From assembly GCA_963845185.1 (NCBI GenBank), contig CAWJRG010000001.1:256001-320000 (forward strand): 64,000 nucleotides of DNA. Direction: 5' to 3'. Source of the stretch: an uncultured bacterium. Lineage in GTDB: Bacteria > Oederibacteriota > PGYV01 > CAWJRG01. Of this stretch, positions 2,163 to 27,472 are shown in pieces; position 1 is the first letter of the stretch, and each line of letters starts with the position of its first letter. Made by a program: the position numbers and the translations under genes. Under the pieces are notes generated by a model. That model did no database searches. It was not told the DNA's origin and was given only the letters and a program-made list of their open reading frames with translations.

Positions 2163-3068
2163 TTACCTAATAAATTGAGCGATAATAAGTGCAAGCCCTG
2201 TTATCAAATGCGCAACAATAGTCATAACGCATGCAGGAGCAAGCTGCAAAGGATTGTCAAAATTTTTGTCGAGCAATGTTATTGCTTTTAAAGAAGGCAA
2301 AAGCCCCAGCAAACTCAAAAGCGACCAGACCGGGATAGCACGCAGGATTACCGCTGTCACGATTATTGCGTACGCAATAAAAACAATTACAGCATGAAAA
2401 ATGCTGCCGTTTTTCCTGCCAAGCCTGACCACCAAATTCCTTTTTCCGGTTTCTTTGTCAGCCTCATAATCAGGAAACTGGTTTATGTCCACTATCGCAG
2501 AGGCAAGCAGCCCTACGGGGATTGACGCAAGCAGCGAGCCAAAGCTTGCATTGCCAGCGAATGCATAATACGCGCCTGTAACCATTATGGGCCCAAACCC
2601 CAGGAAAATAAAAAACTCCCCAAGCCCCCTGTGCGCCAATTTAAGTGGCGGAGCCGTATAAAATACCCCGGCAAACAAAGACAAGCCGAGCAAAAACAAA
2701 AGATACATGCCCTTAAAATATGAAACAATGCATAGTAAAACGCTCCCGAGCAAAAAAAGTACGACTGCTTCGCCAAGCACAGCCTTTGGTGCCAGGACGC
2801 CTGACTGTATGAGCCGCGACCCGCCGGTAAAAGGAAAAATAAACTGCTTGTTTATCCTGTCTGTGCCGTTGATATCGTCAAAGTAATCATTAAGAACATT
2901 TGTAGCCAGGTGCAGGAAAATAAAACCTGCGAGCACAGCCGAAAATATTGCTCCGTTAAATTTAGCGCCGGTTTTAATTGCCATTTCACTCCCCAGCAGC
3001 ACCGGTATTATTGTAACAGTCAAAAAAGGCGCCCTTGTTTCAAGCATCAAAGCCTTAATCTTGTTCAT
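2163..3068 (-). CDS. menA: UbiA-family prenyltransferase, MenA-like
   Basis: NVLNDYFDD and NQFPDYEADKETGKRNL motifs; likely start MNKIKAL at 3068 after AGGAG; the longer ORF extension is repeat-derived. Confidence 0.75.
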   Translation of the reverse strand: MNKIKALMLETRAPFLTVTIIPVLLGSEMAIKTGAKFNGAIFSAVLAGFIFLHLATNVLNDYFDDINGTDRINKQFIFPFTGGSRLIQSGVLAPKAVLGEAVVLFLLGSVLLCIVSYFKGMYLLFLLGLSLFAGVFYTAPPLKLAHRGLGEFFIFLGFGPIMVTGAYYAFAGNASFGSLLASIPVGLLASAIVDINQFPDYEADKETGKRNLVVRLGRKNGSIFHAVIVFIAYAIIVTAVILRAIPVWSLLSLLGLLPSLKAITLLDKNFDNPLQLAPACVMTIVAHLITGLALIIAQFIR

Positions 3069-11027: not shown

Positions 11028-11360
11028 ATGACTGACAACCAACAGAATAACGGATTGAAGAAACCAAAGTTAACCCCAGAACAACTTTTTGATATTTATC
11101 AGGAATGTTCCTTACCCAACGCGCCAGTAAAAGCCATCCTGGAACGGTGCGGGCTTAAACCGTGGCATCTTATTGCCTTGCGTAAGAGAATCAAGCAAGC
11201 TGCCCTGTCAGAACTATCGAATCCGGCAAAATCCGGCAGAAAGAAGTCCATGGTTCCCGTAGAAAGCCTTGCTCAAGTGGATAAGGAACTTTCTCAAACA
11301 AAGGACGCGCTGGCTGCTGTCGGGCATGAGCTTGCGTTGTTAAAAAAAAAGATGAGTTGA
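11028..11360 (+). CDS. IS transposase OrfA (HTH plus coiled coil)
   Basis: RBS GAGGAG; ends ELALLKKK over an A9G slippery run at 11342-11351. Confidence 0.7.
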   Translation: MTDNQQNNGLKKPKLTPEQLFDIYQECSLPNAPVKAILERCGLKPWHLIALRKRIKQAALSELSNPAKSGRKKSMVPVESLAQVDKELSQTKDALAAVGHELALLKKKMS

Positions 11361-12358
11361 GTCTCAAGGGTCCTTTGAAGGGGCACTATCCGGCCCAAGT
11401 TAGGCAGATAGTTGTTATCACTATAAACGAAGCCGTACTATCCGGTTTCACGCAGAAAAGAGCTTGTTTGATCTTTGACATAGACGCCAGAAAATTCAGA
11501 CGCTGGGCTAAACTAAAAAAGAGAACGCCAAGAACGGCATGTAACAAACTGTTGCCGTTTGAAAAGACATCGATTATTGACTCTGCCTTTAGACCTGAAA
11601 ATATAGGCAAGCCATTGAGCCATATTTACGTATATGGCCATAATTCAGGCGCTTTTCATGCTTCTCTATCGACTGTATACAGGTATCTAAAAGCCGAAGA
11701 TCTCGTAAAACCATTCGAACCCAAAAAACGGAAATCTAATCATGTTTCGGCTCACGATCTTTTGGATGCTGGATTTTCCCTTTTGACCTATGACGGTTCA
11801 TGCTTCAAAACCGAGTCCGGCGTAACTGTTTGGTCCATACCGGTTCTGCTTCTGCCTTACAGGTATCTGCTGCATATCGGACACAGTTTACGCGGCGTCA
11901 GTTCAGCGGATTTACGGGATGCCGTTGCTCAAGCCATACTTGAACTGCCGGATGACTTTCCTGACAACATAGTGGCTTTTTCAGACCGCGGATCTGCTAT
12001 GAAAGCCAAAAAGACTGTTGCCTTCCTGGAAGATGTGCTAAAAATTCCTGTACGCTACGGACGCCCAAACACGCCGGATGACGAACCATGGATTGAGGCC
12101 CTGAATAAAAACTCGAAGTATCACAGGGATGTGCCGGCTGTCTTTCCAACGGTTTCAGATGTACTGGACTGGTTAGAAAAATTTAAACCACTGCATAACA
12201 ACGATCCTCATAGCTCGCTACATTATGTTACACCGGCTGAGGCGTTCGCGGGAAAAATGGAGGTGATTTTAAGCCAGAGAAAGAACAACCTGATCACTGC
12301 AAACATTATAAGGTTGGAGGCTTTCAGGGCTTCCAAGCTTCAAGTAGTGATTGGGTGA
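11357..12358 (+). CDS. IS transposase OrfB (DDE integrase core)
   Basis: TYDG..FSDRGSAM..RPNTPDDEPWIE..HSSLHYVTP; lies in the -1 frame relative to OrfA. Confidence 0.8.
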   Translation: MSLKGPLKGHYPAQVRQIVVITINEAVLSGFTQKRACLIFDIDARKFRRWAKLKKRTPRTACNKLLPFEKTSIIDSAFRPENIGKPLSHIYVYGHNSGAFHASLSTVYRYLKAEDLVKPFEPKKRKSNHVSAHDLLDAGFSLLTYDGSCFKTESGVTVWSIPVLLLPYRYLLHIGHSLRGVSSADLRDAVAQAILELPDDFPDNIVAFSDRGSAMKAKKTVAFLEDVLKIPVRYGRPNTPDDEPWIEALNKNSKYHRDVPAVFPTVSDVLDWLEKFKPLHNNDPHSSLHYVTPAEAFAGKMEVILSQRKNNLITANIIRLEAFRASKLQVVIG

Positions 12359-12368
12359 CGGTTTGAGG

Positions 12369-13121
12369 TCAATTAAGCTGAAAAACTCCGGTCCAGTTAG
12401 TACTCTCATTTATAATTACCTTTACTAACGTTTCTGATGCATCGTACCATTCCTGTTTAAAATCATTGCCTTTACCGTCATAGAAGGACTTATCCGCCAT
12501 AGTCAACTTTCCTGATGCATCGTAATATTCCCATTTAACATTATTGCCTTTACCATCATAAAAAAACCTACTAATTGCAATCAATTCTCCTGACGCATTG
12601 TACCTTTCACATTTAATTTTGTTATTCTTATCATCATATAAGAATTTATCCGCTTCAGTCAACTCCCCCGATGCATCATACGCATTATCCTTAAAATCAT
12701 TGCCTTTCTTATCATAAAAGTGGTTTATCACATCCGTCAACTCCCCTGATGCATTATATATTTTACCTTTAAGCGGCTTTCCTTTATTATCATAGAAAAC
12801 TTTAGTAATTTCTTTCAATTCTCCCGAAGCATCGTAAAATTTCTCCTTAATCTTGTTGCCTTTACCGTCATAGAAGGACTTAATCGCCATAGTCAACTCT
12901 CCCGATTCATTGTACACTTCACATTTAACTTCATTACCTTTATCATCGTAAAATTGTTTCTCCATACCAATTAACTTACTTTTATCTATCTTTCCAAAGC
13001 TAACACCATACGCTGAAGAAGTTACTACTTGGTTCACATACTTAGCTTCCAAACTCATAAATAAACTCATAAACAAAACTACAAACGACACACAAACAAT
13101 TAATTTTTTGTGAGTAGACAC
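12369..13121 (-). CDS. Secreted protein with about 8 tandem 24-aa YD-like repeats; intron at start codon, C-terminus cut by IS
   Basis: Signal-peptide-like KKLIVCVSFVVLF; repeats FYDxKGNxxKxxxYDASGELT; last about 11 codons lie in the IS right end. Confidence 0.7.
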   Translation of the reverse strand: MSTHKKLIVCVSFVVLFMSLFMSLEAKYVNQVVTSSAYGVSFGKIDKSKLIGMEKQFYDDKGNEVKCEVYNESGELTMAIKSFYDGKGNKIKEKFYDASGELKEITKVFYDNKGKPLKGKIYNASGELTDVINHFYDKKGNDFKDNAYDASGELTEADKFLYDDKNNKIKCERYNASGELIAISRFFYDGKGNNVKWEYYDASGKLTMADKSFYDGKGNDFKQEWYDASETLVKVIINESTNWTGVFQLN

Positions 13122-13894
13122 CTTTTATAACCTCCTTTGGTTACTTAATGCCCCTCTCAGAACCGAACGTGACCGTTTCGGTCATTCGGCTCCACGGGAA
13201 TACTTCCTAATACGATGACAGCGCATAGGTTAGATGATATACCATTATACTCCGTAATTGCCCAGGGCTTTATCTTTCTTTAGCTCTCCAGGACATTCCA
13301 AAAGAGAACCCTCATTGAGCAGGTGTATATGTGTCTCTTAACTCAACTTTGGATTTTCCTTTGCACGCATAGTCAGGGTCTTAAGTTTCGTTGCCATTCC
13401 ATCTCCACCTCTGTGTGTGGCGGATGTATCCCTTACGACCCCACGCTTTTCCCTCTATCCCCTTTTCTCCATCTACTTTCATAGACTTCATCGATACTAT
13501 GGGATAGTCAGACTGCCGGGACATCTTTTACGGCTCCTCATCTTTTGGAATTTGTCGCCGCATACTCTCCTTTTGAGGATGTCTCGGCTCTCCCGAGTTC
13601 ATATCTGTTCCTTGACATCTTGACACGGCCTTAGACCCCGTCGGGTTCCCACTCTCTCGCCTTTTATGATTGTGGGACTGCTGCCTGCTTCGTTATGAAC
13701 AGTGTCGGCCTCCGACACGATGGCGATTTCGGGGCTCAATACCTTCACTTGCGTTGTATCCCGATGTCTCCCGCCTTCCAGCTTCATTTAGTTCGTTGCC
13801 TCCCTAAATGTGGAATTTGGTATTGGGCTGGTGGCTGACCTTTGCCCAAGCTGGATTTTCACCAGCGCGAACCGATACGCTTTTCTCGGCGCAC
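13109..13894 (-). mobile_element. Group II intron, non-autonomous (RT ORF internally deleted)
   Basis: 5' GTGCG at 13894; domain V GAGCCGAATGACCGAAACGGTCACGTTCGGTTC near 13160-13195; domain VI ending CTACTCAC(A); RT remnant in domain IV. 3' boundary is 13109 or 13110. Confidence 0.9.
13218..13397 (-). pseudogene. Remnant of group II intron reverse transcriptase/maturase
   Basis: MATKLKTLTMRAKENPKL*..HLLNEGSLLEC..ELKKDKALG resembles the intron RT N-terminus, fused to a short tail; no YADD region. Confidence 0.75.
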
Positions 13895-13910
13895 TCATTT
13901 ACGCCTCCCT

Positions 13911-13968
13911 TGATGATGTTTATTTTGTCGAACCGTCAACAGGCGAAAACAAAATATTACAGCACTCA
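13911..13968 (-). promoter_or_regulatory. Leader RNA motif, hairpin 2 only, upstream of RBS of the intron-interrupted gene
   Basis: GTAATATTTTG..CCTGTTGACGG..CAAAATAAAC followed by AAGGGAGG; homologous to 16731-16788. Confidence 0.55.
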
Positions 13969-14594: not shown

Positions 14595-14948
14595 TTACCT
14601 GCGCGCGGCGGCCCGTCTGTGTCCCGGGGAATTAACAAGTTCCAGCCTTAAGCTTTTACCAAGGCCATTCGCTATTTTTTTTAAGGTCTGATATTTCGCG
14701 TCGTCAATATTTTCCATCGCGCGTGATAAAACAAAAGGATTTATCCCCGCATTTTTGGCAAGGGCGTATTTGGTCATATGCTTTTTTTTCAGTTCTTTAT
14801 TTACCTTTTCCATGAAATAAAAAAGCTCCATTTCATCGGCATAGGCTTTGCGCCCTTCTTCGCTTTTACCGGCTTCGTCAAAAATCTTTTGAACCTCATC
14901 CTTTGGCGCGATTTTTAAGTCCGCTTCAGTAATTTTGATTTTTTTCAT
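14595..14948 (-). CDS. XRE/HigA-like HTH antitoxin
   Basis: MTKYALAKNAGINPFVLSRAME..TLKKIANGLG; translationally coupled to toxin. Confidence 0.75.
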   Translation of the reverse strand: MKKIKITEADLKIAPKDEVQKIFDEAGKSEEGRKAYADEMELFYFMEKVNKELKKKHMTKYALAKNAGINPFVLSRAMENIDDAKYQTLKKIANGLGKSLRLELVNSPGHRRAAARR

Positions 14949-15289
14949 GTTGTTTTTCTCCTTTCCAGCATAATGTTTTTTATTATATTCCCTTTCTCAT
15001 ACTCCCGCCTGTTTTTCTTCTTCTGGTTTTTCTCCACAAAAGAATTGACAAACTGCGCGTGATTGCCCGACCAGAAATAAATCAGCCTGTATTCGATATT
15101 GTTAAAGCCCGGCCTCAATTCGTAAAGATTTGTAAAACCCTCGATTTTATCGGAATAAGGCTTTCTGATGTCGTGCCCTTTAATCAGCAGTATGTCTATA
15201 TACGCCTGAATTTTCTTTTTCAAACCGTCCGATAAATCCATAATTTGCTGTTTTACTGTTTCATTCAAACTGTATGTCACGGGCTCCAC
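14945..15289 (-). CDS. RelE/ParE (HigB/Gp49-like) toxin
   Basis: KPYSDKIEGFTNLYELRP..EYRLIYF..FVNSFVEK; likely GTG start at 15289 after AAAGGAG; palindrome TACACAT-TT-ATGTGTA at 15318-15333 may be the operator. Confidence 0.75.
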   Translation of the reverse strand: MEPVTYSLNETVKQQIMDLSDGLKKKIQAYIDILLIKGHDIRKPYSDKIEGFTNLYELRPGFNNIEYRLIYFWSGNHAQFVNSFVEKNQKKKNRREYEKGNIIKNIMLERRKTT

Positions 15290-15386
15290 GCGTTCATCTC
15301 CTTTATCAATAAGATTATACACATTTATGTGTACATTATCAAGCGTTATTTATGATCCTCAATTTCTTTTATTACATATATTTCCA

Positions 15387-15452: not shown

Positions 15453-16715
15453 CTATCTTTTCTTCATCCACTTTTTCACCCACTTCACGACCTGCTTGAA
15501 CACCGCATGCCCTATTTTGCCTAAAAGCGACTTCGGCACGTGGTTTTCCGCCTGCGTTATAATATTGTGCGCCAGCTCAAAGCCAGAATTCAATTTGGGA
15601 TTTTCAGAGTTTGGAATTTGTGATTCACTTACCATACCCTCACCCTGAACATCTTGAGCTTTTGAACCTTGAACTTTTCCTACCTCTTGCCCCCCTTGAA
15701 CATTGAGCCTTGAACCTTGAACTTCTTTTATGATCGCCGGCAAGTCTGCCCAATACGGGTTATCCTCCAGTTTGCTATCCTTGTGTCCCAGCCACCATAT
15801 TGCTCCTGCTGCGCCAAGCGCTGCCAATACGCCGCTATCCTCGTCCGCTATTATAATATGAACACCACCCTTTGCCGGACTTTTTATCTGAAAATATCCA
15901 GTCTCCCTCATCTCCTGTAACAGCTTGGCATACCGCCCGTCTTGCCCATCGCCCGCCGAATGTTCCCCCTCACCCAGACCCTCTCCCGCAAGGGGCGAGG
16001 GGTGTGTTTTGCCGCCCTCCCCGAAGGATTCCGGTGTATTGCCTGCTTTTATCCATGCAGCTATCTTTTTGGCTTGTTTTTCAGTCATTTTCCGCTCAAT
16101 AAGCACTTTTATGGTCTTTTCCATCTTATCCACGTCATCTGGATAGCCATTCGCAAGCCCAGTAAGGGCAATAACAGCAGATTCAGGTATCTTCCAGCCT
16201 GTGGATAACTCCGGATTCCGGAGTTGTCCACATATTTGCTCCCTTGCCGCTGTATTCAACAGCCCCATTACCTTTGCCACATTCCCTACATATTGAAACC
16301 TTAACTGGAGCCTGTCCGCGACTTCCTGATTGTTGAGATCAGGGCATAAAGCCATGTATTTTTCAATACCCAGGTAGTTGTCAAACCAGTTCGGCGGCTC
16401 CGCTTTATTGCCCATAATCAACTCCAGCATCTCATCCGCCGGGCTGAGGCCCTTCACAACAACCGCCTCTATCTCGGTCCAGCCGTTCTGCTTAGCGCCT
16501 GCGTACCTGTAGTGCCCGCATAGGATGTAATAATTGATTCCCTGACCCAGTAGGCCATCGCCGGCCTTTCTATCGTCAGTCAAAAGCGCCAGCTTGACAG
16601 GGTTCAGCAGCCCGTCCTTATCCATGGACTTCGCGACAGCATCCGTAATGTCCTGCTGCAGGAAGCTCCTCGGGTTGTTTGGATGCGGCTTAATCTCGGA
16701 AATAGGTATCTTCAT
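15453..16715 (-). CDS. ParB/Srx N-terminal domain protein with HTH and repeat-derived C-terminal region
   Basis: IPISEIKPHPNNPR..GLLNPV..ILCGHYRYAGA; NQEVADRL HTH. Confidence 0.75.
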   Translation of the reverse strand: MKIPISEIKPHPNNPRSFLQQDITDAVAKSMDKDGLLNPVKLALLTDDRKAGDGLLGQGINYYILCGHYRYAGAKQNGWTEIEAVVVKGLSPADEMLELIMGNKAEPPNWFDNYLGIEKYMALCPDLNNQEVADRLQLRFQYVGNVAKVMGLLNTAAREQICGQLRNPELSTGWKIPESAVIALTGLANGYPDDVDKMEKTIKVLIERKMTEKQAKKIAAWIKAGNTPESFGEGGKTHPSPLAGEGLGEGEHSAGDGQDGRYAKLLQEMRETGYFQIKSPAKGGVHIIIADEDSGVLAALGAAGAIWWLGHKDSKLEDNPYWADLPAIIKEVQGSRLNVQGGQEVGKVQGSKAQDVQGEGMVSESQIPNSENPKLNSGFELAHNIITQAENHVPKSLLGKIGHAVFKQVVKWVKKWMKKR

Positions 16716-27293: not shown

Positions 27294-27402
27294 TTTTCTC
27301 CCGATAACTGTCTTTGTTTTATTCCTGATGATTTTTTTTGGCGGGAACTATATATAAACTCCCTCACCAAACAATCACTTCCAAGATTATTTCACAAGAA
27401 TA

Positions 27403-27453
27403 ATACAGATAAAAATAAGGGGAAATTTATTTTCCCCTTATTTTTATCTGTAT
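27403..27453. terminator. 23-bp perfect inverted repeat, probable terminator or stabilising hairpin
   Basis: atacagataaaaataaggggaaa-tttat-tttccccttatttttatctgtat. Confidence 0.7.
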
Positions 27454-27472
27454 ATTGTAATAACTTTTATTT

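Follow-up and report, generated by a model that had tools for sequence, protein, structure and literature searches.

A group II intron at a start codon carries an in-phase Shine-Dalgarno sequence and start codon in domain VI and probably represents a lineage that homes to translation starts

How can a gene be expressed when a group II intron has inserted a single nucleotide behind its start codon, and how might such an element find this site? These questions are raised by a locus in a 64,000-nucleotide stretch of contig CAWJRG010000001.1 from an uncultured bacterium of the Oederibacteriota (assembly GCA_963845185.1), hereafter called the window. A first-pass annotation, made from the letters of the window alone, had proposed that a group II intron occupies the start codon of a gene and supplies a ribosome-binding site (RBS) and start codon of its own.

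The window copy is an ORF-less group II intron of 786 nucleotides on the minus strand (13894-13109) that begins with GUGCG and ends with CUACUCACA. It matches the Rfam models RF02005 (D1-D4-6; 13859-13626) with 106.3 bits, compared with a gathering score of 49, and RF00029 (D5/D6; 13194-13108) with 49 bits, compared with a gathering score of 40. Other features of a group II ribozyme are present as well, including a GUGCG of the GUGYG type at the 5' end (13894), a domain I that is recognised by the covariance model, a domain V hairpin with a 2-nucleotide bulge, and a domain VI with a bulged A about 7 nucleotides before the 3' splice site. Domain V is 100% paired in an alignment of 17 introns, and six of its pairs exhibit changes on both sides. 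The Rfam matches, together with the same arrangement in all seven copies in the genome, confirm that a group II intron is inserted at a start codon, and the anatomy of this real group II intron is as first described (Table 1).

Table 1. Features of the window copy and its host gene (window coordinates)
Feature	Position	Strand	Basis or remark
Partial copy of an abundant repeat/leader of about 95 nt	13900..13962	-	nhmmer, profile positions 31-93
Host Shine-Dalgarno GGAGG, 5 nt before ATG	13904..13908	-	same place in 7/7 genomic sites
Native start ATG plus one base A (5' exon end, IBS1 core)	13895..13898	-	pairs with UCAU
Domain I core	13626..13859	-	RF02005 match
Candidate EBS2-like CGCC, internal loop 5' of EBS1 hairpin	13722..13725	-	tentative
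EBS1 hairpin	13683..13710	-	loop covaries with last 4-8 exon bases in relatives
EBS1 core UCAU	13698-13695	-	complementary to AUGA
Candidate EBS3 U, opposite first 3'-exon base A	13633	-	tentative
Domain IV with decayed RT/maturase ORF remnants	13205..13524	-	ORF comparison and BLAST
Deletion junction in domain IV	near 13248-13241	-	BLAST break at query 647/654
Domain V	13160..13192	-	RF00029; all 17 aligned introns form 13/13 pairs
Domain VI: bulged branch A (13115) in the basal helix, then an internal loop and a distal hairpin	13112..13156	-	
Intron-borne Shine-Dalgarno AAAGGAGG, loop and 3' strand of distal domain VI hairpin	13131..13138	-	
Intron-borne start GTG, 13 nt before 3' splice site	13119..13121	-	paired with CAU in stem
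3' exon: rest of host gene	12369..13108	-	ORF, Pfam

There are six further copies of the intron in the 3.5-Mb assembly. These are 1905-1908 nucleotides long, and in each of them the domain IV ORF stays open over 472 codons or more. The sibling IEP matches TIGR04416 (group II RT/maturase) with 367.5 bits, compared with a cut-off of 300, and also matches Pfam RVT_1. It ends about 35 residues past the maturase match and therefore cannot accommodate a DNA-binding or endonuclease domain. In the window copy, about 1.12 kb of the RT/maturase ORF has been deleted and the remnants are frameshifted, such that the element carries no intact ORF. A 47-amino-acid ORF (13524-13381, minus strand) begins with similarity to the N-terminal part of the sibling IEP before the frame is lost. 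The identity of the window copy to its six full-length siblings is 89-90% over positions 1-647 and 97-98% over positions 654-786. When the window copy is compared with an intact sibling, the ribozyme scores are 106.3 versus 101.5 bits for RF02005 and 49.0 versus 49.3 bits for RF00029. The window copy is an internal-deletion derivative that may or may not still splice. A search of sequencing runs for the locus listed no RNA run, and the DNA runs that it listed contained at most 0.08 of the sampled words.

All seven genomic copies are arranged as GGAGG-N5-6-ATGA, intron, AAAA, and the expectation that other copies would share the insertion site is borne out by all six of them. The upstream flanks of these sites are unrelated and the downstream genes are different, and each of these genes encodes a hydrophobic and often lipobox-like N-terminus. 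Among empty TATGAA sites in the genome, only 298 of 3036 have GGAG or GAGG located 4-18 nucleotides upstream of the ATG. In addition, GGAGG is followed by [CT]GG at five of the seven occupied sites versus 11 of 326 empty sites, where an empty site is defined as GGAGG-N5-8-ATGA heading an ORF of at least 60 codons. The insertion pattern exceeds chance, and short pairing alone would not give it.

In the window, the spacer CGTAA separates the host GGAGG (13908-13904) from the native ATG (13898-13896). On unspliced RNA, the frame that begins with this native ATG runs 36 codons into domain I and then encounters a stop codon. The GTG codon at 13121-13119 opens a 250-codon ORF that extends to 12369 on the minus strand and begins GTG TCT ACT CAC AAA AAA TTA. 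The product of this ORF matches the Pfam family RHS_repeat (E 5.9e-6; 27 bits, cut-off 22), and a match to MORN_2 falls below its cut-off. Given the RHS_repeat match and an N-terminus that by eye resembles a signal peptide, the host is predicted to be a secreted YD/RHS-type repeat gene. A protein search with the host product revealed no close homologue, wherein the best match is 41% identical over 49% of the query. With the additional RBS and start codon near the end of the intron, the gene is probably translatable whether or not the intron is removed.

The region immediately upstream of the insertion holds part of an abundant repeat or leader, which lies outside the intron and ends in the SD of the host gene. 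There are 171 profile matches to this leader repeat, which includes an upstream hairpin, in the genome. No Rfam match was found in nine other copies of the repeat.

The position of the 3' splice site requires some consideration, as an A is both the exon base before GUGCG and the base that follows CUACUCAC. If the intron ended after 13110 (CAC), then the ligated exons would be out of frame. If it ends after 13109 (CUACUCACA), then ATG-A is joined to AA-AAA-TTA to encode MKKLIV, and the spliced and unspliced RNAs are both in frame. The end at 13109 that had been chosen in the first-pass annotation is favoured by frame, by relatives, by the distance to the branch A and by an intron-less homologue. 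For all seven genomic copies, only an end of the 13109 type keeps the native ATG in frame with the downstream signal peptides. The corresponding last nine bases in relatives are CUACUCGAC, with the same spacing from the branch A. With this end, counting back from the 3' terminus of the intron places the branch A (13115) at the seventh base, which is the geometry of Ll.LtrB. Furthermore, an intron-less and 46%-identical homologue of one of the host genes, located in a genome from the same order, starts with AGGAG-N6-ATGAAAAAA. Its N-terminus reads MKKYIKIF, compared with MKIYTKIF predicted for the spliced form, and it serves as a proxy for an empty site. The exact 38-nucleotide pattern of the 3' exon was absent from the metagenome contigs searched, among which there was no true empty site.

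Domain VI holds the RBS and start codon that had been noted initially, and both are in frame with the host gene as claimed: AAAGGAGG and GTG are separated by 9 nucleotides, and the GTG heads the 250-codon frame. This GTG is found only in the window copy, and all other genomic copies have ATG. The prediction that these other copies would also have a domain VI SD and an in-frame start holds for six of six. In most copies, GGAGG is located 7-9 nucleotides before the start codon, which is the usual spacing for an SD. The motif extends to other organisms: an SD and ATG located directly before TCTACTC are present in 22 of 27 complete foreign domain VIs and in all seven copies from this genome (with GTG in the window copy). 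In these 22 foreign examples, the ATG resides exactly 13 nucleotides before the 3' splice site.

Counted to the respective splice site, the distance is always 13 nucleotides for the intron start codon and 4 nucleotides for the native one, and in either case a single base of the following codon precedes the 3' exon. Thus, spliced and unspliced RNAs would be read in the same phase for any host gene. Of 25 copies that could be assessed, 20 have at least 69 open codons in the frame set by the domain VI start, and this length is attained in 3 of 50 cases for the other two frames. Short downstream frames are found at L031, L035, L043, L046 and L057, and four further copies are cut by contig ends.

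The foreign domain VIs that lack the motif are those of L039, L045, L056, L015 and L041, the last of which has an in-frame ATG three bases earlier. The 5' junction can be seen for four of these introns (L039, L056, L015 and L041), and all four reside away from a start codon. Two other introns at non-start sites, L046 and L057, carry a weak version of the motif in domain VI. A strong SD-ATG is present at 13 of 13 start-codon sites versus 0 of 6 other sites, a comparison that comprises only one or two phylogenetically independent contrasts, and therefore an independent test of this association has no power.

The structural context of these signals was evaluated with the alignment of 17 introns. 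In the proposed structure of domain VI, 97.7% of cells are paired, a value reached by 0 of 500 shuffles, and slid controls give 32-49%. The basal helix is 98.8% paired and nearly invariant, with no double changes. The distal hairpin is 90% paired, and five of its six pairs covary, with changes on both sides. The predicted fold of the isolated domain has a minimum free energy of -15.6 kcal/mol (z -4.1). In 15-16 of the 17 introns, the basal helix contains the start codon paired to CAU beside the bulged A, and the GTG of the window copy retains a start codon as well as a G-U pair. Two bases of the SD also sit in a stem. Thus, with the start codon and part of the SD occluded in this manner, initiation from domain VI requires unfolding.

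Recognition of the exon by EBS1 is supported by covariation. The earlier proposal placed EBS1 at a UCAU in the loop of the hairpin spanning 13710-13683, and this loop indeed tracks the exon end across the lineage. Examples of matching EBS1 and exon sequences are UCCGUG with CACGGA (L057), UAAAGA with UCUUUA (L039), UGCCGC with GCGGCA (L056), CGUGA with UCGCG (L046) and CAUAAGAG with CUCUUAUG (L059), as well as UCAAG with CUUGA at a TTG start codon (L016). Because the loop covaries with the exon end in relatives, EBS1 is considered to be established. At the window site, EBS1 forms only four base pairs (UCAU with AUGA). The UCAUAA of the siblings can pair with UUAUGA, and of the six full-length sites, three allow six pairs, two allow five and one allows four. 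A second loop carrying UCAUAA (13672-13660) was considered as an alternative EBS1 and was rejected, as it does not track the exon in relatives.

Evidence for additional contacts is more tentative. The EBS2-like CGCC listed in Table 1 could perhaps pair with a GGCG that straddles the 3' end of the SD, and such pairing would account for the enrichment of [CT]GG. This candidate applies to the copies of this genome only. Across the lineage, a permutation test on the internal loop gave 277 of 2000 permutations that reach the observed mean, with the introns' own intron-exon combinations scoring no better than mismatched ones, and a scan for 6-mers complementary to the exon likewise gave no lineage-wide support for EBS2. 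For EBS3, 14 of 17 introns show complementarity between the candidate column and the +1 base, including two of the four in which +1 is not A. The GGAGG upstream of the start codon could be read by the RNA or by the IEP, or it could only be favoured by selection after insertion.

Relatives of the intron are found far beyond this genome. There are 54 loci from a scan for the IEP that included one genome per species. IEPs with 79-81% identity are found in MAGs labelled Omnitrophota, with one labelled Proteobacteria. Those with 55-68% identity are found in MAGs labelled Aerophobetes, Aminicenantes, Clostridia, Syntrophaceae, Brocadia, Actinomycetota, Dehalococcoidia, Chloroflexi, Nitrospirae and Chthoniobacter, among others. 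A search at the DNA level of 60 genomes from relatives of the host bacterium found the intron in four, with none among 23 from the same order and four among 37 from the rest of the phylum.

There are 29 foreign 5' junctions, of which 16 are ATGA, two ATGG, one GTGA and one TTGA, such that 20 comprise a start codon (ATG, GTG or TTG) plus one base. One intron follows ATG directly, one follows ATAGA with an SD upstream, and seven junctions are not at start codons (L015, L039, L041, L046, L057 and two in L056). An SD-like motif is recognised by eye at 13 of 14 foreign ATGA sites with enough flanking sequence. The interrupted genes putatively encode, among others, a FlgB-like protein (L033), a sulfatase-like protein (L042) and an IS110-type transposase (L060), as suggested by inspection of N-terminal sequences.

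A quick SH-aLRT tree, from which L051 and L082 were excluded (one in-frame stop each) and in which several forks are open, places all introns with an SD-ATG in domain VI within one clade. This clade includes 27 of 31 rows (SH-aLRT 97) and also holds the few non-start members, and the backbone is poorly resolved. The nearest IEPs from named organisms (52% identity) are encoded on plasmids of Arthrobacter, Peribacillus, Cytobacillus and Candidatus Megaera, followed by those on Caedibacter pKAP298 (49%) and on Sinorhizobium plasmids (43%). The Sinorhizobium plasmid intron is a long-branched outgroup in the tree. The introns of Sinorhizobium, Peribacillus and Megaera also match RF02005, with 134-158 bits. 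Domain VI of the Peribacillus intron is plain, and that of the Caedibacter intron carries AGGAG-N8-ATGTCTACTCGAC.

On the basis of the observed anatomy, insertion-site pattern and phase rule, and of the covariation in EBS1 and domain VI, it seems likely that these introns form a specialised En-minus lineage that targets translation starts for homing and has an SD and start codon placed in phase within domain VI. Members of this lineage would retrohome into translation-initiation regions by pairing of the EBS1 loop (UCAU plus one to three bases) with the start codon and one additional base. A weak contact of the EBS2 type may sense the 3' end of the SD together with the bases after it, and the first base of the 3' exon is usually A. 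Two routes to host gene expression can then be envisioned. If splicing takes place, for which the window copy would use the maturase of its six full-length siblings in trans, ATG-A would be rejoined to AA-AAA to produce MKKLIV. If the intron is retained, the domain VI SD and its GTG or ATG codon would initiate translation in the same phase, and the product MSTHKKLIV would have the same signal peptide with three extra residues. In either circumstance the insertion would be harmless to the host gene. Because the start codon is paired with CAU beside the branch A, ribosome loading and branching should compete. Initiation at the domain VI start would require domain VI to open, and this should exclude branching on the same molecule. 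The window copy itself may no longer splice or move, as it has a 4-bp EBS1 interaction and about 10% divergence in domains I-IV.

Other readings of these data deserve consideration. One possibility is that the purine run and AUG of domain VI are maintained for the sake of the ribozyme or of protein binding, for example to pair with CAU in a stem or as a loop for a tertiary or maturase contact, in which case the phase would be a by-product and the interrupted genes would fully depend on splicing. The SD-like and AUG sequences could be kept for such ribozyme reasons, since the AUG pairs with CAU in nearly all aligned introns, the basal helix is almost invariant without double changes, the SD lies partly in a stem, and the co-occurrence of SD-ATG with start-codon sites rests on only one or two independent contrasts. 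Against this view, GGAGG is held 7-9 nucleotides before the start in most copies, the 13-nucleotide distance creates the ATG-plus-one phase in every copy, and the sole change observed in the start codon is from ATG to GTG. Moreover, sublineages at non-start sites lack the motif (L039, L045, L056) or have a weak form (L046, L057), and the Peribacillus relatives have a plain domain VI despite 52% IEP identity. For these reasons we judge it unlikely that the signals exist for the ribozyme alone.

Another possibility concerns only the window copy, which might be a dead relic that neither splices nor moves, such that the YD-repeat gene is expressed solely from the domain VI GTG or never. The absence of an ORF, the frameshifted IEP remnants, a 10-11% divergence from the siblings in domains I-IV, the 4-bp EBS1-IBS1 interaction and the stop codon that ends the native ATG frame after 36 codons in domain I are all compatible with this view. 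Yet it scores as highly against Rfam as an intact sibling does, its domains V and VI share 97-98% identity with those of the siblings, six potential maturases could act in trans, and the host ORF is intact over 250 codons, and we consider the relic reading to be quite improbable. Perhaps, instead, the start-codon pattern reflects survival rather than targeting, wherein any site compatible with EBS1 can be invaded and only those insertions that fall at true gene starts persist, as the domain VI start rescues them. EBS1 and EBS3 specify only about 5-8 bases, EBS2 does not covary across the lineage, and some relatives reside at non-start sites with a matching EBS1. But intergenic insertions would survive too, and none of the seven genomic copies occupies a site without an SD, even though about 90% of empty TATGAA sites have none. 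The enrichment of [CT]GG after GGAGG also points beyond EBS1, and we therefore consider an origin by survival alone to be very doubtful.

The reading that we favour, a lineage that targets translation starts, has broader implications. The usual account of bacterial group II introns is that they stay out of genes or rely on being spliced efficiently. Whether these elements represent a fourth target specificity, namely a generic SD plus any start codon, that is coupled to an RBS and start gated by domain VI so that splicing becomes optional, is in our estimation an evenly balanced matter. If true, the intron would be a mobile translation-initiation cassette that is able to land on almost any gene in almost any bacterium, and this could explain its spread over more than 10 phyla (as labelled in record titles). 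It could further disconnect a gene from the 5' leader native to it, and it would constitute a new route to harmlessness for a retroelement. Such introns would offer a natural example of ribosome loading set against lariat formation on one helix, as well as a template for gene-targeting introns that leave their target unsilenced. There is also a consequence for annotation, in that gene calling will probably assign a false MST(R/H/Q) N-terminus to interrupted genes.

Several known introns provide useful comparisons. The intron on a Sinorhizobium meliloti plasmid (L083), which we take to be RmInt1 or its close kin (class D), resembles the present lineage in that it matches RF02005 (145 bits) and encodes an RT and maturase without an endonuclease domain, and its IEP is 43% identical over 93-94% of the length. 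The homing site of RmInt1 is a single specific location within an insertion sequence, and to our knowledge RmInt1 has not been described with translation signals in domain VI.

The concept of lineages at start or stop codons is not new, as was rightly suspected at the outset. According to the available portion of Gomes et al. (2025; PMC12584367), a specialised, monophyletic IIB1 (CL1) clade found in or next to initiation or termination codons, including Avi.groEL and EcKTE56.groEL, was reported by Michel et al. (2007). As portrayed in the same portion, this clade has IIB1 RNA, is defined by a 300-700-nucleotide 5'-subterminal insertion (subdomain Ia), and is hosted by proteobacterial housekeeping genes, and the mechanism by which the codon is found is stated as unknown. 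The introns described here are similarly located at or next to an initiation codon and spare the host frame. In contrast to that account, the whole ORF-less intron is only 786 nucleotides long and has no 5' insertion, the RNA is of the RF02005 type, the IEP is En-minus, an SD and start codon reside in domain VI, and the hosts are mostly genes for secreted proteins from many phyla. Because the 5' insertion is missing, the present intron is not a member of the published clade as this text delimits it (PMC12584367). The RF02005 match starts 36 nucleotides into the intron, and a few relatives have about 30 extra nucleotides at this location. The IEP has no room for D/En domains, and its nearest relatives from named organisms are En-minus introns.

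A literature search found no description of an SD and start codon in domain VI or of generic homing to start codons, although Michel et al. (2007) or Simon et al. (2008) might anticipate either. Neither feature is mentioned in the accessible portions of PMC4424553, PMC3552965, PMC4028801, PMC8919778 and PMC12584367. In the available part of a 2015 review (PMC4424553), three target specificities are recognised for bacterial introns, namely homing sites, terminators and attC sites, and start codons are not among them. The same part describes group IIC introns as having a motif-type target, short EBS1 pairing and an En-minus IEP (PMC4424553). The present lineage shares this combination of a generic target, a short EBS1 interaction and an En-minus IEP. 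However, group IIC introns, as described there, insert after the hairpins of terminators or attC sites, whereas the sites occupied by this lineage conform to an SD, N5-8 and a start codon, and its domain I matches RF02005, as does that of the Sinorhizobium intron.

There are 171 places in the genome that carry a repeat of approximately 95 nucleotides. Two copies lie in the window (listed below), and tandem copies are present, for example, on contig 9 (916576-917157). The repeat has nested stems that covary among copies, with a conserved apical loop, and it is often split by a second short hairpin repeat. Its 3' end usually constitutes the Shine-Dalgarno (SD) sequence of the next gene, wherein the ATG is located 5-9 nucleotides further on. 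Nine copies compared with Rfam yielded no match at E<=1. The repeat may serve as a 5' leader RNA, a promoter cassette or a mobile element.

Features of the window and of one related locus
Feature	Location	Strand	Remarks
Two-ORF transposase-like unit	window 11028-12358	+	rve_3 E 5e-5, below cut-off
~95-nt repeat copy	window 13962-13900	-	
Gp49-like/HTH pair	window 14595-15322	-	Gp49 45 bits, HTH_3 23.1 bits
ParB_N protein	window 15453-16715	-	
~95-nt repeat copy	window about 16810-16722	-	
L081 locus	Candidatus Megaera plasmid, 2864-3021		variant of start-codon theme

The Gp49-like/HTH pair looks like a toxin-antitoxin module. Together with the transposase-like unit and the ParB_N protein, this pair suggests that the surroundings of the intron-bearing gene are mobile or plasmid-like. 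Elsewhere in the window, each strand of a palindromic segment (27396-27459) gives a hit to the model of a plant microRNA, with scores of 36.8 and 35.8 bits that are far under the gathering score of 90. The segment is almost certainly nothing more than an inverted repeat.

Among loci in other genomes that carry related introns, one sublineage (L030, L031, L032, L038, L046 and L057) has about 70 additional nucleotides in domain VI, upstream of the intron-borne SD and start codon; they form a hairpin that is conserved and capped by a GAAA loop. Two of its members, L046 and L057, occupy sites away from a start codon; their SD is weakened, and the downstream frames comprise just 6-9 codons. At L056 (1181-2271; IEP identity 50%), the 5' half of a related intron is present twice, at a distance of approximately 820 nucleotides and with an identical 5' flank each time, which suggests a tandem or nested insertion.

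L059 and L081 each vary the start-codon theme. At L059, an ATG directly precedes the intron, and EBS1 forms an eight-base pairing wherein the paired stretch ends in AUG. In the Megaera intron (L081), an SD-like AGGAAA and an ATG are placed deeper in domain VI. This ATG opens an annotated 34-codon ORF that spans the 3' splice site and stops just upstream of a methyltransferase gene.
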